From Candidatus Hermodarchaeota archaeon (lineage in GTDB: Archaea; Asgardarchaeota; Hermodarchaeia; Hermodarchaeales; Hermodarchaeaceae), in assembly GCA_016839805.1 (NCBI GenBank), contig JAEOTO010000045.1, forward strand, positions 1 to 10,677: 10,677 nucleotides of DNA, read 5' to 3'. Positions 456 through 9,978 of the stretch are shown here, one piece after another (positions within the stretch are counted from its first letter, which is position 1; every line of letters begins with the position of its first letter). Position numbers and translations under genes: made by a program. The notes below the pieces were generated by a model. The model was given only the letters and a program-made list of their open reading frames with translations. It had not been told where the DNA came from and ran no database searches.

Positions 456-926
456 ATGTCTTCTTCAGGTCATAACCATGTCGCTGGCGAAGCCCGGCGA
501 AGCCATCAAATCCAAATCGGACTTTTCATTTTCTTTATTATCATCTGGATTCTGGATTCCTTTCTCCTCAGAATAACACCTCTTGTGTACCTCGTCCCCC
601 TCTATCTCAATGTAATTCCCGGAATTATCATTATTATCAGTGCATTAGTACTCATGCAAAAATCGCACATCATCTTTGAAGGCCCCGAACCCCATGTCGT
701 GACAACCAGTGTCTATAGTCGGGTGCGACATCCCATGTATCTAGGTTCAATCCTTTTGTATTTCGGCTTCTGGATCACAACACTATCACTCATCACCCTT
801 CTCCCACTCCTCTGCGTCATCGTAGGCTACAATTACCTTGCCAACGCCGAAGAACAGCTCCTAGAAGAGAAGTTTGGTGATGAATACCTGGAGTACAAGA
901 AACGTGTTGGAAAATGGATCCCCTGA
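456..926 (+). CDS. Isoprenylcysteine carboxyl methyltransferase (ICMT/PEMT)-family membrane methyltransferase
   Basis: About 4 TM helices; family motifs VVTTSVYSRVRHPMYLG and EEQLLEEKFGDEYLEYKKRVGKWIP (RHPxY...EE...FG..Y..Y). Confidence 0.9.
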   Translation: MSSSGHNHVAGEARRSHQIQIGLFIFFIIIWILDSFLLRITPLVYLVPLYLNVIPGIIIIISALVLMQKSHIIFEGPEPHVVTTSVYSRVRHPMYLGSILLYFGFWITTLSLITLLPLLCVIVGYNYLANAEEQLLEEKFGDEYLEYKKRVGKWIP

Positions 927-1925: not shown

Positions 1926-2327
1926 CTAGGCGTACTGGCCCTCGCTACGAGGTGGCAACCGTTCCAAGGCACGCCATGCGGCTTGTCGAACTTGCTCGTC
2001 AGGATCCTTACGGGCTTGGAAAATTGCCCCTAAGACACGGGGTTCTGACCGAATGTGCCCTAAAGCTTCCACGGCATAGCGTCGTGACGCAGGATTATCG
2101 CTGTTCATTGTATCTAATAACGGATCAATAGCTGGTTTACCAATGCGACCCAAAGAGAGGGCGGCAAGCTTGCGAGTGTATTCGTCGTCTTGTTCATGGA
2201 GAACCTGGACTAGTTGCATCACCGCTAATGCGCCAATCTCTGCTAGCGCAGTACTGGCTCGTAGCCCTTCGCGACCTGGTTTACTCAGTTCTTTGATGAG
2301 CTCCTCGATACGTTGCTCTACATTCAC
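1926..2327 (-). CDS. HEAT-repeat (PBS lyase HEAT-like) protein
   Basis: Repeated helical units ASTALAEIG / AALSLGRIG / AVEALGHI / VRQAAWRALERL. The ORF track starts at TTG 2342, but GGAGG (2340-2336) sits 8 nt before GTG 2327, the likelier start. Confidence 0.85.
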   Translation of the reverse strand: MNVEQRIEELIKELSKPGREGLRASTALAEIGALAVMQLVQVLHEQDDEYTRKLAALSLGRIGKPAIDPLLDTMNSDNPASRRYAVEALGHIRSEPRVLGAIFQARKDPDEQVRQAAWRALERLPPRSEGQYA

Positions 2328-2593
2328 TGGCAAATCCTCCAACGAATAGACATTACATAATCGTATGCTTTGAGTGTTTCGATTTCAGTATATTTGTCAA
2401 AATCCCTGTTTTACTAAACAAAAAAGAACCATGTACTACATTTCCATTAACAAGCTGATGAGTGTCAATTTTTTTATATTTATTCATAAAAACTAAACTT
2501 AGGCTGCGTATTCTCCCTGATGTCTGTTATTCTATCTGGACTTCTCATCCTAATGTTACCTCTCAAAAAATATGATAATTTTGCATTATGTGT

Positions 2594-2619
2594 TTTCACA
2601 CTAATTTTAGAATGTGAAA
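2594..2619. terminator. Hairpin just downstream of the 259-aa GNAT stop; possible terminator or protein-binding site
   Basis: TTTCACA (2594-2600) pairs with TGTGAAA (2613-2619), with an inner CTAA/TTAG pair. It lies about 25 nt past the stop codon at 2644. Confidence 0.25.
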
Positions 2620-2643
2620 CGGTGAATTTGGTATGAATGGTCA

Positions 2644-3423
2644 TTATTCCTTGGCGAGACGATACCAGTAGGTATAGGCATCTTTGAATCCGAGGTTATA
2701 GTAGAGTTGTTGGGCAGATTTATTCGGTTCCGACACTTGCAAATAGGCTTTCTTAGCTCCTTGACTTTGCGCCCAGCTTACCAAGCTCTGGGTAATCGAT
2801 ATAGCTACACGTTGACGACGATACTTTTCTTGCGTGACAAGCGAAAACAATCCTAGCCAATGACCATCAAGCACACCCATTCCAACACCGATAATCTTAT
2901 CACCCTTTATCGCGGCAGCACAGGCTTTATCACTAGAAATTCGTGAAATAATATCTCGCCTGACACGAAATCTTGTAGGTTCAAATTCAGCGTATTCACA
3001 ATAGGCCCTATACCAGTCTTCCCAAGGTTCACCCATGATTACAACCCCAACTTCGGTCTCATTTGTGAGAACATCGTTGAGGTTAGCAGTCTGGACAATC
3101 ACATGCATCTCGATTTCCAGACCATATGATTGTAATTCCTCGTCAAGGTTGGTGGGTTGACTAGCTTTTGTCATTTGAAATTGCACAGGGAGCTGGTGCA
3201 TGCCATAGAATTCTTGAACCACTTCCAAAGCTTTCTTAATGTCTCCTTTCGGGGGATCGTGTAACGGAAGAACACTATTTGCTCGATGGGTTACGCCATC
3301 GGTGCTCCGAAGTAACCATCCACCAAGTTGTTGGGTGTGTTTAGCAGGCCAGGCACGAGCTGCAATTTCTTCAATTTCCATAATTTGATTCGTGGATACC
3401 ACTTCGATCACTTTAGTTCGCAC
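2644..3423 (-). CDS. GNAT family N-acetyltransferase, two-domain type (Rv0428c-like)
   Basis: N-terminal AARAWPA...LGGWLLR...GVTHRANSV; C-terminal GNAT LFSLVTQEKYRRQRVA...AYLQVSEPNKSAQQLYYNLGF. AGGAG RBS precedes the GTG start. Confidence 0.88.
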   Translation of the reverse strand: MRTKVIEVVSTNQIMEIEEIAARAWPAKHTQQLGGWLLRSTDGVTHRANSVLPLHDPPKGDIKKALEVVQEFYGMHQLPVQFQMTKASQPTNLDEELQSYGLEIEMHVIVQTANLNDVLTNETEVGVVIMGEPWEDWYRAYCEYAEFEPTRFRVRRDIISRISSDKACAAAIKGDKIIGVGMGVLDGHWLGLFSLVTQEKYRRQRVAISITQSLVSWAQSQGAKKAYLQVSEPNKSAQQLYYNLGFKDAYTYWYRLAKE

Positions 3424-3709
3424 ACACTGTGAACTCCTATTTTTACTCTTCTCTTAGCCTGAACGAAAGCACGACTTTAACCTGTTGTTTTGGTTTAATG
3501 ATTTGAGTCGGGTACAGAACCGAAAAAAACCCATTAAATTCAATGAAATTATTGAATTCTGCTCCACTCTCACTCATTACAATTTTGAGTAAATCATGAG
3601 AAATGAATCGTTACATTCACAATAGGGATACCTTTTATTTAGGTTCTCAACTGCTATGTTATCATCGAATTTGGGTTGGCGGAATTCCTCTAATAGGGTA
3701 GGAGTGATT

Positions 3710-4528
3710 ATGGCGATTCACAGCTTCTATGTTATTGCCTGGGACTCAGGACAACCCCTCTATCATAGAACCTTTGTCGAAGTCTCCGATAATCCAACCC
3801 TTCTATCCGGATTATTAGCCAGTGTTGAACTTCTTGCCTTGAAAATTACACAGCAACACGTGAATGTAGTAACCATGCGCGATTCACGGTTTCTCTTCAA
3901 AGTCGATAATGATAACGGTTTATTACTGGTTTTTATCACTGATATTACTGAAGACCCTGAACGATTCAGCGAATACCTCGATATGCTCCATGAACGCTTC
4001 TTAGAAATCTTTGAAGACCCCGCACACAAATTACCCGTCTATCAACGGGACCCCCGACGAGCCAAAGTCTTTGACGAACTCGTTGACAGCCTTGTTTCCC
4101 ATTGGGAAACGGGTGAAGCTAGCATCCTTTCGGCTAAAATCATGGATATTCTCGACGTGTACACGGTCTTCTACAACCTCACCCTACAAAAGATTCTCTC
4201 AGACCGGTCTCGTGAAATGCATTACCCAGATATCAAACGAATCTTCGAAACACACCTACAATCTGATCCCGCACTTCGCCATATGTCTGTAGACCAACAC
4301 GGTGTCGTTTCCTATGATCAGGTAAACCCTGATCTAGTTCGTCTTCAGTCCCTCGTTGATACTTTACATCTGATCCTACAAGAACTCATCGCCATTGCCA
4401 GACGCACTCGGCGCAGACAGAGTTATGAAACGCTATTCTTTGAACACTTTGCCCCGATGATAAAAGCCGAAAACGAACGCTTAAAGGAATATAACCTCAC
4501 AGAAAAATTAGTGATGGAACTGCTATGA
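3710..4528 (+). CDS. Longin-domain protein (TRAPP Bet5/Trs23- or adaptin sigma/mu-like N-terminus) with an uncharacterised, probably helical C-terminal domain
   Basis: GGAGTGA RBS precedes ATG 3710 (ORF track opens at 3656). Longin pattern: beta-hairpin MAIHSFYVIAWDSGQPLYHRTF, helix LLSGLLASVELLA, three strands (VNVVTM, RFLFKV, LLLVFITD), helix FSEYLDMLHERFLEIF, helix FDELVDSLV. The stop overlaps the GTPase start (ATGA). Confidence 0.75.
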   Translation: MAIHSFYVIAWDSGQPLYHRTFVEVSDNPTLLSGLLASVELLALKITQQHVNVVTMRDSRFLFKVDNDNGLLLVFITDITEDPERFSEYLDMLHERFLEIFEDPAHKLPVYQRDPRRAKVFDELVDSLVSHWETGEASILSAKIMDILDVYTVFYNLTLQKILSDRSREMHYPDIKRIFETHLQSDPALRHMSVDQHGVVSYDQVNPDLVRLQSLVDTLHLILQELIAIARRTRRRQSYETLFFEHFAPMIKAENERLKEYNLTEKLVMELL

Positions 4529-5073
4529 CACCACCTCCCTCAACATCACACACGGAAGAGCCCACCTATAGTTATCGGGCTAAAGTTGTGGTAGTTGGGG
4601 ATCCTGCAGTGGGAAAAACTAGCCTGGTCGTTCGATACGTTAAGGGTGTTTTTAATCCCTCCTATATCCTTACCCTGGGTGTTAATTTCTTTGTCCAAGA
4701 CATATCAATAGGCGACAACAAGCTGCGTATGAATATCTGGGATACAGCCGGACAAGAACGATTTGGTCCTATTCGGAAAAAGTATTACAAGGGTGCCCGT
4801 GGGGCAGTTTTGGTGTTCGACCAGACGAATCGAGAAAGTTTTGAAAGGTTATCCTTTTGGATTGATGAAGTTAAACGTTCATGTGGAGAAATTCCCATGA
4901 TTATCGTAGGTAACAAAGCTGACCTGATTTCATCTATAGATGAAACTGATGCACAGGAATTTGCTGCCCAACATCAACTCACCTATGTCGAAACAAGCGC
5001 CAAAACGGGTATGAATAGCATCCGCCCCTTCCGTCTTCTTGCACCCCTCATGTTAGATAACATGGGTGTGTGA
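4525..5073 (+). CDS. Rab-like small GTPase (Ras superfamily) without a C-terminal prenylation motif
   Basis: G1 GDPAVGKT, G2 YILTLG, G3 WDTAGQE, G4 GNKAD, G5 ETSAK. RabF-like motifs LGVNF, RMNIW, RFGPI, YYKGA, LVFDQT. Ends ...MLDNMGV. Confidence 0.95.
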   Translation: MTPPPSTSHTEEPTYSYRAKVVVVGDPAVGKTSLVVRYVKGVFNPSYILTLGVNFFVQDISIGDNKLRMNIWDTAGQERFGPIRKKYYKGARGAVLVFDQTNRESFERLSFWIDEVKRSCGEIPMIIVGNKADLISSIDETDAQEFAAQHQLTYVETSAKTGMNSIRPFRLLAPLMLDNMGV

Positions 5074-5118: not shown

Positions 5119-5147
5119 GTTTTTTCACACGAGGGCTTGCTTTTTTT
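5119..5147 (+). terminator. Candidate archaeal oligo-T terminator after the longin-GTPase pair
   Basis: Two T7 runs (5119-5125 and 5141-5147), 45-75 nt after the GTPase stop. Confidence 0.35.
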
Positions 5148-5178
5148 GGTCATGAAATGTATAATCCTGCTACCGGTG

Positions 5179-6357
5179 ATGTCATTGGTTATCCAAGAAC
5201 GCGATGAGAGTTTTTTCAACTTCCTAACTCCCTCCATTATGACTATTTTAGGCGTATTACTTTTAACAATAGGTGCAATTGTTCTCATTCTCATCCACTT
5301 TGCTATCCCAATCTTAAGCCCCGATGACATCATACAAAACCTACAGTTGAACCTTTTTGGTCAAATCATAGGGACTATCGTTGTGCTAGGCTTTTTGATA
5401 CCGTTTTTCAAGGTGAAAGATGTTGAGACTAAACCAATATCGCCAATAAACATCGCTAAGGTTGTGGGTGTGGCTTGTCTAGCTCTTACTGTCGCTATCT
5501 TACTTGCATTTCTCCTCTTTGTCATCTTTACGACTCTAGGAATGCCCATTGAACACTCTTATGGCGATCTCATTTTGGGTCTGGATCAACTAGCAAATCC
5601 CTGGAATATTGTGCTCTTCTTTGCTACCGCATCCCTTGGGGCAGCAATCTTTGAAGAACTCATCTTCCGGCGCATGCTCATCCCCACCCTGGAAATCCGG
5701 GGCATGGCCCCAATCGCCGCTGTCATTGCATCTAGCTTAGGATTCGCAATGATTCATGTCCCAAACGATCTCCTTTTTGGTAGCCCAAGTTATGTGATCT
5801 CACATTTCATCACGAGTGTTGCCCTCGGCCTCTTCCTGGGGTTCGTCTATGTCACAACACGCAATGTTATCTACCCCATGATTATTCACGGCTTCATCAA
5901 TTTCATCGGTTTTACCGAAAGCATCCTCCTCAGCCTTAATAACCTCGCACTCCTCCTTTTCTACACTGGCATCCTCCTCATAATTTGGATAATCGGTATC
6001 ATCGTCGCCGGAATCGCACTCTTCTATTACCTACGCGAACCCCAACCTACCTGGGTAAAAACTCTCCAAATCAAATCCCGCATTAACATTCTTCCAGGAC
6101 TCATCGGTTATCTCATAATCGGTTTCATGTTGATTTTACTTCCAATAGCCCTTGATCTCGTCGTGACAATCCTTTTCTTCCCCATCCTTCCCCTCATCTA
6201 CTTCGGATTATTCCTAGCCTACATACTCCTCTTTGCCCTCATACTCTGGCTCGTCAACAACATCAAATATGAACCCAGCTCACCAGATGAAGAACCCCCA
6301 CCAACCAGACTCTATGAAAAAGCCAGTGAGGTTAAGCTGGAACCTCACCAAGAATAA
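5179..6357 (+). CDS. CPBP-family (Rce1/Abi, type II CAAX protease-like) intramembrane glutamic protease with extra TM helices
   Basis: Motifs FEELIFRR (EExxxR), FAMIH (FxxxH) and IIHGFIN (HxxxN); about 10 hydrophobic segments. Likely ATG at 5179 after GGTG (ORF track opens at TTG 5137). Confidence 0.92.
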   Translation: MSLVIQERDESFFNFLTPSIMTILGVLLLTIGAIVLILIHFAIPILSPDDIIQNLQLNLFGQIIGTIVVLGFLIPFFKVKDVETKPISPINIAKVVGVACLALTVAILLAFLLFVIFTTLGMPIEHSYGDLILGLDQLANPWNIVLFFATASLGAAIFEELIFRRMLIPTLEIRGMAPIAAVIASSLGFAMIHVPNDLLFGSPSYVISHFITSVALGLFLGFVYVTTRNVIYPMIIHGFINFIGFTESILLSLNNLALLLFYTGILLIIWIIGIIVAGIALFYYLREPQPTWVKTLQIKSRINILPGLIGYLIIGFMLILLPIALDLVVTILFFPILPLIYFGLFLAYILLFALILWLVNNIKYEPSSPDEEPPPTRLYEKASEVKLEPHQE

Positions 6358-7279
6358 GCGACAACCGACGCTGATTCCGACCACGCACAACCGTAACATC
6401 AACACGGCTCCCCACTTCCCGCTTCCGCAATTGTTCTTGGATCTCACCCATCGATGAAATTTTCTCTCCATCAAAAGCTACGATCACATCACCCTCTTGC
6501 AATCCCGCCCGTGCAACTGGGCTTCGCGGAACAACCTGTGCAATAAGCACGCCCTCCTTAACACCTAAAGAATAGGTACGAGCAATTTGTGGGTTCACAC
6601 TCACACCTAGAAATCCCATGTAAGCGCGTCGGACATGTCCAAACTCAATAATCTCCTCAGCAATCTCCTTCACAGTATTGATGGGAATGGCAAACCCTAT
6701 CCCCTGCGCCCAGGGCAACATCGCCGTATTAATACCAATCACATTGCCAATAATATCACATAAGGGACCTCCGCTGTTTCCAGGATTAATCGCAGCATCT
6801 GTTTGAATCAGCTTCTCCAGAACCACATTCTTCGCCTGGATTTGGCGTTGTACCGCGCTAATTACGCCCGTGGTAACTGTCGGACCACCAAGAATAAAGC
6901 CATACGGATTCCCCACCGCGATGGCTAGTTGACCCACTTCAAGCTTATCAGAGTCCCCTAACTTTGCAGGAATGAGCCCCCCATTCTCAACTTGGAGCAC
7001 TGCAATATCAACAAGTTGATCACTACCTAAGAGAGTCGCCTGATAGCGATCTCCACTTGCATCAGCAATGGAAATCCGTTGAGCTTTATCGATTACATGG
7101 CGGTTTGTGACGATATGATTACGATCATCGAGCACTACCCCCGAGCCCATACCACCAATGGGATGGACACGGTAGAAGTTCCGCATTAATGCAAGAGTAC
7201 TAACGCTGACCACGCTTGGTGTCACACGTTTCACTGCTTCAATAAGCTCGTCTTGAAAGGCATGAGTAGGGACTGGCAT
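6332..7279 (-). CDS. htrA: HtrA/DegP-family trypsin-like serine protease with one PDZ domain and no signal peptide or TM anchor
   Basis: Catalytic triad motifs IVTNRHVI, DIAVLQV and INPGNSGGPL; C-terminal PDZ (YMGFLG...PRSPVARAGLQEGDVIVAFDG). ATG 7279 is preferred over GTG 7294 because a TATA-like element lies about 30 nt upstream. Confidence 0.93.
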   Translation of the reverse strand: MPVPTHAFQDELIEAVKRVTPSVVSVSTLALMRNFYRVHPIGGMGSGVVLDDRNHIVTNRHVIDKAQRISIADASGDRYQATLLGSDQLVDIAVLQVENGGLIPAKLGDSDKLEVGQLAIAVGNPYGFILGGPTVTTGVISAVQRQIQAKNVVLEKLIQTDAAINPGNSGGPLCDIIGNVIGINTAMLPWAQGIGFAIPINTVKEIAEEIIEFGHVRRAYMGFLGVSVNPQIARTYSLGVKEGVLIAQVVPRSPVARAGLQEGDVIVAFDGEKISSMGEIQEQLRKREVGSRVDVTVVRGRNQRRLSLILGEVPA

Positions 7280-7287
7280 ACTATAGT

Positions 7288-7326
7288 TACTCACATTTTG
7301 TGAGTATTAAATCTTTTACACTCACA
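7288..7326 (-). promoter_or_regulatory. htrA promoter with an abutting palindromic operator
   Basis: The minus strand reads AAAAGA-TTTAATA (7318-7306). Perfect inverted repeat TACTCACA-TTT-TGTGAGTA at 7288-7306, and a third half-site CACTCACA at 7319-7326. Confidence 0.55.
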
Positions 7327-8680: not shown

Positions 8681-9556
8681 TTATTCTGTATCTCTCTTGG
8701 TCAAGAATCGAATGTAAATACGTAAGTCACGCAGCCTGATATAGAGAGCAGGTACGTTTTGTTGGTATTCAATGAAAGATTCACCAAACCTATCTTGGAG
8801 TTCCTTCTCCTCAACAAAATAGATGTGAGCCAGTAAACCAAATAAGAACATAAAGAAGAGCAACAGCGAGTAAACAGAGAAGCGAAGCCACAGGCCCCCC
8901 ATCGCGATGGACAACAATCCGAAATATGTTGGATGACGGATGACCGAGTATATCTCGTGTTTTTGAATCTGTGACTCAGCTGGATAGTAGAGGTACACCA
9001 GAGCCATGTAGTCAAATCCAAAGGTGAGCAATGCACTTCGGATTGTTAATAAACCAATGATTACGATGAACAAACTCAAGACGATTCGAATAGTAAAATC
9101 AAGTCCAACAGGAATACCCAGAAATGATATGAGGGACCTACAGAGCAGGGTCGTAATGGGATTTACAGGCGTTCCAGCTGGGAGAGTGTCTATTGGGATA
9201 TAAATGTGAATGCATATTGCAAAGATCCAAGAGATTCCAAAAACACCACGGGGTATCGCTTTCTGATATGCGAGTTCTCCAAATTCTGCTACATATCGGT
9301 CCCTGTTTTGCCAAACCCCCCAGATCGACCTGAAAGCAATTATCTCACACAAAAACACTCCTAGAGCCGGGAGAATTGGCTCAATCAAAACCAAAACCGT
9401 CATGTGCGGAAAAATTCTTGTTACTGAATCAATGAACAACATGAGGGTCAAAGCGATGCTGAATCCTAGGAGAATCAATAATCCTATTTCTACTACTCTC
9501 CAACCCAAGTACTTGGGAAGCTTTTCCTTCAGCTTGTCCAGACCCTTAAAATGCAT
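8681..9556 (-). CDS. ICMT/PEMT-family membrane methyltransferase, long form with N-terminal TM extension
   Basis: C-terminal motifs IYSVIRHPTYFG and VEEKELQDRFGESFIEYQQNVP; about 6-7 TM helices. Likely ATG at 9556 after GGTTGA (ORF track opens at TTG 9568). Confidence 0.88.
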   Translation of the reverse strand: MHFKGLDKLKEKLPKYLGWRVVEIGLLILLGFSIALTLMLFIDSVTRIFPHMTVLVLIEPILPALGVFLCEIIAFRSIWGVWQNRDRYVAEFGELAYQKAIPRGVFGISWIFAICIHIYIPIDTLPAGTPVNPITTLLCRSLISFLGIPVGLDFTIRIVLSLFIVIIGLLTIRSALLTFGFDYMALVYLYYPAESQIQKHEIYSVIRHPTYFGLLSIAMGGLWLRFSVYSLLLFFMFLFGLLAHIYFVEEKELQDRFGESFIEYQQNVPALYIRLRDLRIYIRFLTKRDTE

Positions 9557-9978
9557 CAAATTAATCAACCAATTGAAACGTATTTTCTATTCTTAAAATA
9601 AGTCTTAGTACCTCTAGGTCTTAGTTCATCAACAAAATAAAAGATTGCTAAATACTTTGAGGATTGAGATCCACTTTTCACCCTATCACGCACGCCTTCT
9701 CTTCTCTTTAGTTGATACTTCCGTGCAAAGTGAAAAATCCAGAATAAATTTCAGTAAGGCTTGGGCTTGTGAGTAAAAGCGTATTGGATGTCTAGGCTTC
9801 CTTCGAAACAGAGGGAACTAGCTTGAGGTTCTATTAGTTCCAGGAATAGCGGTCATCAAATTCGTCGTAGTAGATGGTGTTTGGCTTTTCACCTTTGGAG
9901 GGTTTGGTATTACAACGCCCTAATAGAAACCTTACAACGAGTGTCACATCACGGCTGCTTCAGTTTCTATAAGGGGAT

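Follow-up and report, generated by a model that had tools for sequence, protein, structure and literature searches.

Several of the guanine nucleotide exchange factors (GEFs) that activate Rab GTPases are built from longin domains. In Mon1-Ccz1, which acts on Rab7/Ypt7, in Fuzzy-Inturned, which acts on Rab23, and in BLOC-3 (HPS1-HPS4), which acts on Rab32/38, the first longin domain is catalytic and touches the switch regions of the Rab. In GEFs of the Mon1/Fuzzy type it accounts for most of the contact with the Rab, and the substrates of all three complexes need a Tyr-Lys/Arg pair in switch I for catalysis (PMC12383261). Asgard archaea also possess longin and Rab-like genes and even longin-GTPase fusions, all of which have been described (PMC4917890, PMC10933270). 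Rab-, Arf- and Rag-like GTPases number in the dozens in Asgard genomes, as do longin and roadblock proteins, and a structural survey found that the genes of the two groups generally do not share operons; since operons are not the rule, an Asgard GTPase is hard to match to its GEF or GTPase-activating protein (GAP) (PMC10933270). Here we consider a 10,677-nucleotide stretch of DNA (the window, contig C37 of a 2.3 Mb genome that is 87% complete) whose proteins have close homologues named Promethearchaeota or Candidatus Hodarchaeota in public sources, that is, Asgard archaea. It carries two overlapping genes, called gene A and gene B below, for a longin-domain protein and a Rab-like GTPase, which remain together in every locus of their subfamily examined and probably form a regulator-GTPase pair in which A would act on B most likely as an exchange factor.

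Gene A (open reading frame (ORF) P0001, positions 3710-4528 of the forward strand) encodes 272 amino acids, with a longin domain at the N-terminus followed by a helical domain, and ends with the TGA at 4526-4528. Gene B (ORF P0002, 4525-5073, forward strand) begins with the ATG at 4525-4527 and encodes a Rab-like small GTPase of 182 amino acids without a C-terminal cysteine. The resulting ATGA overlap of start and stop codon (4525-4528, forward strand), already pointed out in the initial annotation, was confirmed and is consistent with translational coupling. Overlaps of this kind are common in prokaryotic operons. That the pairing goes beyond chance follows from the overlap being kept in every related locus examined: A and B are coupled in 24/24 loci of the subfamily, without exception and with longin identities down to 32%. 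The ATGA could be read directly in all 15 loci from the same genus, while nine gene-called loci of other assemblies, whose longins are 32-75% identical to gene A, show a 4-base overlap.

The same genome contains a second coupled pair on contig C26, likewise overlapping by ATGA, with a longin 43% and a GTPase 53% identical to those of the window; the A-B pair has been co-duplicated as a unit. The presence of only one longin gene, as initially annotated, is thus true within the window and does not extend to the genome, which has this paralogous pair and 19 longin-like ORFs beside 24 GTPase-like ones. Just two of its ORFs belong to the gene A family over their full length, each of them coupled to a GTPase gene. 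In the GTPase tree the 13 paired sequences group in a single clade (98 in the Shimodaira-Hasegawa-like approximate likelihood ratio test, SH-aLRT) that leaves out the genome's 22 further GTPase-like ORFs, and the longin tree is divided into three groups identical to those of the GTPase tree, from which it appears that the pair diverged as a unit. Twelve signature positions are fixed in the paired GTPases and rare in other Rab/Ras-like ORFs. All of them fall within residues 1-82, that is, in the N-terminus, switch I (K40, N44, P45), the interswitch (D59, R68) and switch II (G81, P82). Conserved pairing, co-duplication and a single clade of paired GTPases together support a cognate regulator-GTPase pair as the best reading of the locus.

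Longin and GTPase modules also occur joined in this genome. Three ORFs of about 300 amino acids (G000:C26:84640-85563, C26:89849-90739 and C27:16235-17137) are longin-GTPase fusions, with an N-terminal part recognised by the longin-family profile and a match to the GTPase profile, and Atlas clusters have the same architecture. The GTPase parts of the three fusions form a separate clade together with ORF C8:11337. A third longin protein, more distant and 228 amino acids long (L003:1492-2178, G000:C26:116258-116980), differs in its C-terminal part, so that its match to the family profile is confined to the longin portion (E 2.4e-21); the distance to a Rab-like gene is 1.4 kb. In two metagenomic relatives (L010:1171-3152 and L043:253-3885) the coupled pair belongs to a series of Rab-like GTPase genes, three or four in succession, and L043 has two coupled pairs inside 4 kb.

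The first 135 residues of the gene A product (3710-4114, forward strand) correspond to a longin domain of the Mon1/Fuzzy first-longin type, as judged from model topology, structure comparison and the family profile. The AlphaFold2 model, built with 18 homologues, has a mean predicted local distance difference test score (pLDDT) of 81.4 over the full length and consists of strands at residues 3-10 and 16-21, a helix at 29-47, strands at 53-55, 60-66 and 71-77, a helix at 83-100 and then further helices. Residues 3-100 therefore follow the strand-strand-helix-strand-strand-strand-helix order (bbabbba) of longins, which were told from roadblocks by the order of the five-stranded sheet and the lack of an N-terminal helix. 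When residues 1-138 were compared exhaustively with solved structures by VIA-align, about 35 longin domains were retrieved at Z 10-14.5, with VAMP7 (14.5), Fuzzy (14.2), Trs23 (13.9), synbindin (13.2), the mu and sigma subunits of adaptor protein (AP) complexes (~13) and Mon1 (12.0) at the top. Roadblocks reached Z 8.7-9.7, and this over the first ~100 residues only (1-103/105). The first longin domains (LD1) of MON1A, Mon1 and Ccz1 were the top matches in Foldseek. The longin-like pattern noted in the initial annotation is borne out by this topology and by both structure searches, and the modelled N-terminal domain is a longin fold.

Sequence comparisons point to a particular branch of the longins. 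Searched as a single sequence against Pfam, gene A has Fuz_longin_1 (PF19036) as its top family, at E 0.0054 and 17.4 bits, below the gathering cut-off of 26.1 bits, and has a weak, equally sub-threshold match to Sybindin (E 0.037); the sequence alone retrieved nothing meaningful from the PDB or NCBIfam. Among 40 members of the family, 16 match Fuz_longin_1 at E <= 0.01, the best at 1.5e-6, and in the PDB the family profile picks out four MON1 chains at their first longin domain (E 3e-5 to 2e-4). The alignment between the family and MON1 spans the region between strand 1 and helix 2, both included, and contains a common G-x-P-(V/L)-(Y/F)-S-R strand motif. Gene A has G14-Q15-P16 just before strand 2, with a nearly invariant Arg20, and the best-conserved elements of its longin domain are helix alpha1 and strand beta1. 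These profile matches support the first longin domain of Mon1/Fuzzy/HPS1 as the probable closest relative.

The C-terminal helical domain (residues 128-272; 4091-4525, forward strand) is modelled with confidence and matches no recognised family or solved fold. Modelled alone, it has a pLDDT of 92.9 and a predicted template modelling score (pTM) of 0.87, and is all-helical with one small hairpin. These 145 amino acids are conserved across the whole family. The best VIA-align score against solved structures was Z 6.6, within the noise seen for helical proteins; Foldseek gave nothing at E <= 0.001, Pfam had no match, and the domain matches no longin. By shape only, it resembles unnamed bacterial proteins and a PatA_N (PATAN, PF14332) cluster, with template modelling (TM) scores of 0.60-0.64 over 122-128 residues. 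This likeness of the predicted domain to PatA_N (TM 0.62), for which a Pfam search gave no sequence support, may serve as a lead only. PATAN proteins, which target the motors of type IV pili, reportedly have their genes close to homologues of mglA/mglB (preprint 10.1101/2021.06.11.447907).

Judged from its sequence, gene B encodes a Rab-like small GTPase with a complete set of G boxes, namely G1 GDPAVGKT (25-32), G2 Thr50, G3 DTAGQ (73-77), G4 NKAD (130-133) and G5 SAK (158-160); the initial annotation was right on this point and on the catalytic glutamine, which is Gln77. The P-loop Pro27 (4603-4605), at the position of Gly12 in Ras, is replaced by Ala (10), Ser (1) or Thr (1) in the other 12 paired GTPases. 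Pfam assigns gene B to Ras at E 3e-50, and its best 60 matches among solved structures are all Rabs (E 5e-39 to 1e-33), with Rab23, Rab1, Rab35 and Rab5 leading at ~1e-38. The RabF motifs, whose consensus was reportedly set out by Pereira-Leal and Seabra in 2000, are matched at 16/27 positions: LGVNF at 3/5, RMNIW at 2/5, RFGPIR at 3/6, YYKGA at 4/5 and LVFDQT at 4/6. The close match to all five motifs that had been claimed was therefore somewhat generous, as RabF4 and RabF5 fit this consensus well and RabF2 and RabF3 poorly. The switch II sequence RFGPIR has an unusual Gly81-Pro82 specific to the clade of paired GTPases.

Both the N-terminal P-x-Y-x-Y and the switch-I S-Y-I-x-T of gene B align with Rab1. 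Phe43 and Tyr47 of switch I are kept, and Tyr47-Ile48 aligns to Tyr-Lys in Rab23 and to Tyr-Ile in Rab1. Among the 13 paired GTPases Tyr47 is invariant, while position 48 is Ile in 11 and Val in two. The protein ends in ...LDNMGV and its sole cysteine is C120. A C-terminal cysteine is present in 0/13 paired GTPases, which thus do not have the geranylgeranylation motif of Rabs; Asgard Rab-like proteins of this kind have already been described (PMC10933270).

From the computed folds, coupling, co-duplication and clades of GTPases and longins we infer how the two proteins may bind, by which interface, in which oligomeric state and in which direction regulation would run. The longin domain of A, probably dimeric with itself or with its paralogue, would bind the face of B made up of switch I, the interswitch and switch II, and would set its nucleotide state, in the most likely case by acting as an exchange factor, while the helical domain might provide for dimerisation, localisation or a further contact. 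We put the probability that A-B is such a dedicated regulator-GTPase operon, with the longin domain controlling the nucleotide state of B and most likely acting as a GEF, at about 0.5. The GEF role appears the most likely one because of the affinity of A to the first longin domain of Mon1/Fuzzy, the main Rab interface of those GEFs. A complex of a longin dimer with the GTPase had been suggested for modelling in the initial annotation. When B was folded together with two copies of A, the score was 0.34, the best control reaching 0.00, which we rate as weak support. Of 80 solved complexes, 58 reached the mark used for this score, as did two of 110 mismatched pairs; with a score of 0.60 or less it was passed by just seven of the 80 and by both of the passing mismatches. 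Contact agreement between runs was at least 70% and the pLDDT of the partner at least 74, the GTPase being the only one scored. Given the second paralogous pair, and the side-by-side pairs or tandem family genes of relatives, a heterodimer of paralogues is no less plausible than a homodimer.

A number of observations weigh against an exchange factor. The lysine-insertion mechanism of Mon1-Ccz1 cannot apply to gene B with its Tyr47-Ile48, gene A encodes a single longin domain where the subunits of those GEFs each have three in succession, and its Fuz_longin_1 score stays under the cut-off (17.4 against 26.1 bits). The complex score is weak, and the best-studied prokaryotic operon of regulator-GTPase layout, mglB-mglA, encodes a GAP and not a GEF. 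As for the cognate Rab-GEF module of the initial annotation, a cognate pair is supported by the conserved pairing, the co-duplication and the single clade, whereas the GEF part, which would have to do without the switch-I lysine, is less secure.

The wider family also speaks against this reading. Distant members with a longin plus helical domain (19-25% identity) are spread over the phylum, and a GTPase gene adjoins them in 0/16 loci from seven other Asgard families; their neighbours are unrelated genes for an Lrp/AsnC regulator, CitMHS and major facilitator superfamily (MFS) transporters, TFIIB and a glycosyltransferase. The family profile matches 293/301 genomes, a count that includes plain longins. 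In five genomes of other families, a query with gene A gave at most 19-28% identity and one with gene B at most 48%, the N-terminal extension of B being unmatched. The synteny that the initial annotation proposed to look for across Asgard genomes accordingly holds in all 24 loci of the subfamily and breaks down beyond it, so that the tight coupling is a trait of this lineage. Another Asgard family (L025, L027 and L028, from genomes G041, G050 and G058) has two longin-plus-helical genes in tandem, which hints at a heterodimer there. At G041:C7:383156-394036 three Rab-like genes in a row, with the same orientation as the tandem genes, are found at a distance of ~2.5 kb, and in one further Asgard family a divergent GTPase gene is found near a member of the gene A family.

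Gene A might instead switch gene B off, as a GAP comparable to MglB for MglA or to the longin complexes FLCN-FNIP, GATOR1 (NPRL2-NPRL3) and C9orf72-SMCR8, although we regard this as unlikely. The order of regulator and GTPase gene is that of mglB-mglA, and B does not have the lysine in switch I on which the related GEFs rely. In longin GAPs of the FLCN, NPRL2 and SMCR8 type, strand 2 is preceded by a GP motif and catalysis uses an arginine finger (PMC12290439), and the G14-x-P16 of gene A before strand 2 and its nearly invariant Arg20 recall these features. The published motif is however GP and not GxP, with the arginine finger elsewhere in the domain (PMC12290439), and human MON1A, a GEF subunit, has the same G-x-P...S-R strand. 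Since MON1A has both, the G-x-P and Arg20 cannot decide between GEF and GAP. The structural comparison places GATOR1 (Z 9.4) and Lst4 (Z 9.9) below the longins of GEFs, SNAREs and adaptors (Z 12-14.5), and the Pfam and PDB profile searches also favour Mon1/Fuzzy.

It is similarly doubtful that A binds B without catalysis, whether as an effector, as a membrane or localisation adaptor, or as a chaperone replacing a prenyl anchor and GDP dissociation inhibitor (GDI). Without a C-terminal cysteine B needs some other means of localisation, and the extra, well-folded domain of 145 amino acids kept throughout the family could provide for a role of this kind. Longins also serve as plain platforms in adaptor complexes and in the signal recognition particle (SRP) receptor, both of which are among the fold matches of gene A. 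The sequence signal nevertheless is that of the catalytic first longin domain of Mon1, and no membrane-binding element was found in A, its basic stretch at 229-235 not being kept in the paralogue or in distant members. That the two proteins do not interact at all, the coupling merely ensuring their co-expression in the same process, would agree with the weak complex prediction and with the finding that most Asgard GTPase genes share no operon with a longin or roadblock gene (PMC10933270). We consider this highly improbable in view of an overlap kept in 24/24 loci down to 32% protein identity, of a pair duplicated as a unit with congruent trees and an exclusive GTPase clade, and of the longin-GTPase fusions in the same genome.

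The two genes appear to form a transcription unit of their own. A TATA-like TTTTATTTA (3633-3641, forward strand), read from the sequence as the putative archaeal promoter element of the operon, lies 69 nt before the ATG at 3710 and just 15 nt before an alternative ATG at 3656. A Shine-Dalgarno-like AGGAG (3700-3704, forward strand), also read from the sequence, is found 5 nt 5' of the gene A start. All 26 homologues of gene A are ~272 amino acids long with a common N-terminus, and none has been functionally named. The ATG at 3656 was rejected as the start of gene A, the homologues beginning at the equivalent of 3710. The start at 3710 is the likely one given the N-termini of the homologues, the AGGAG and the position of TTTTATTTA, too near to 3656. 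Oligo-T tracts are known archaeal terminators, and two runs past gene B, T6 at 5120-5125 and T7 at 5141-5147 (forward strand, 47-74 nt beyond the stop), may form its terminator. These putative signals would bracket the operon and fit a bicistronic unit. One wetland metatranscriptome contains two 151-nt contigs, 98-99% alike, which match at 4648-4796 and 4883-5033, both within gene B, and no contig over gene A or the A-B junction. As DNA carry-over is possible, this match is only a hint that the lineage and gene B are represented in that RNA library.

Directly downstream of gene B lies a gene for a CPBP/Rce1-like membrane protease (5137-6357, forward strand; Pfam E 1e-18). Its listed TTG start at 5137 falls between the two oligo-T runs, which makes the ATG at 5152 the likelier start. 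By eukaryotic rules, the GTPase encoded by gene B, having no cysteine near its C-terminus, would not be a CAAX substrate. In relatives, an Rce1-like gene is likewise located two genes downstream of the pair. Two genes for methyltransferases of the ICMT/PEMT family are situated further out (456-926, forward strand, and 8681-9568, reverse strand). Upstream of the pair, genes for a HEAT-repeat protein and a GNAT acetyltransferase of the Rv0428c_C type occupy 1926-3423 on the reverse strand, the GNAT gene being divergent from gene A, and a gene for an HtrA-like trypsin-PDZ protease follows downstream (6332-7294, reverse strand). The HEAT-repeat/GNAT/HtrA-like order around the A-B pair is kept in several relatives.

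A full-text search of the literature returned no description of the 272-amino-acid gene A family or of its coupling to a GTPase. A-B, which belongs to the Hodarchaeota/Heimdall side of the Asgard archaea, presents a rare matched candidate regulator for an archaeal Rab-like GTPase, and a testable pair of small soluble proteins (~272 and 182 amino acids). Should A have exchange activity, Rab activation of the Mon1/Fuzzy type would predate eukaryotes and would use a mechanism without the catalytic lysine; should it have GAP activity, A-B would be the longin counterpart of MglB. Either activity would give a role to a protein family present in most of the Asgard genomes searched. A bolder proposal, which we put forward very tentatively, is that A represents a minimal pre-eukaryotic GEF of the Mon1/Fuzzy/HPS1 class, a single domain of first-longin type, dimerised with itself or its paralogue via the helical domain and activating a Rab1-like, non-prenylated GTPase without a switch-I lysine, from which the tri-longin GEFs of eukaryotes would have been elaborated.

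The locus resembles these tri-longin GEFs in the family-profile and Foldseek matches of gene A to MON1 LD1, in Fuz_longin_1 as its top Pfam family, though scored below the cut-off, and in the Phe43 and Tyr47 kept in gene B. It differs from them in that A combines one longin with a new helical domain, no second, different subunit is present in the operon, and B, unlike their substrates, has Ile48 in place of the lysine of the Tyr-Lys pair and is not prenylated. In the tri-longin GEFs two different subunits jointly bind the Rab through their first longin domains; the paralogue of A on contig C26 could be a second subunit of this kind. There is also a resemblance to the TRAPP subunits Bet5-Trs23, part of the GEF for Ypt1/Rab1, since gene A scores Z 13.9 with Trs23 and gene B has a Rab1-like N-terminus and the switch-I Tyr-Ile. 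Catalysis by TRAPP needs subunits of the Bet3 family, however, and the A-B operon has none. A search of the 87%-complete genome for Bet3 (PF04051) gave no match and is uninformative, as the control genomes gave none either.

A-B is a regulator-GTPase module of the longin/roadblock type, a class that is already known. Its bacterial representative, MglB-MglA of Myxococcus and Thermus, in which MglB is a roadblock homodimer with GAP activity, likewise has the regulator gene directly before the GTPase gene and a dimeric platform (PMC10933270). A is unlike MglB in its longin topology, MglB reaching Z 8.7-9.1 over ~100 residues as compared with 14.5 for longins, and B is unlike MglA, which lacks the G3 aspartate, in having DTAGQ and being Rab-like. 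For Asgard archaea, Liu et al. (preprint 10.1101/2020.10.19.343400) put forward as a GEF module an operon that encodes a LAMTOR1-like roadblock, a Rab-like GTPase and a DENN protein. This operon likewise joins a protein of the roadblock superfamily to a Rab-like GTPase, but consists of three genes with roadblock and DENN, whereas the present operon has two genes, with a Mon1-type longin, a helical domain and no DENN core. Finally, the Asgard longin-GTPase fusions (Klinger 2016, as cited in PMC4917890; Tran 2024, PMC10933270) link the same two modules. In these accounts the GTPases of the fusions are Arf/Rag-like, whereas the locus described above keeps the modules as separate coupled genes, with a Rab-like GTPase and an extra domain on the longin protein.

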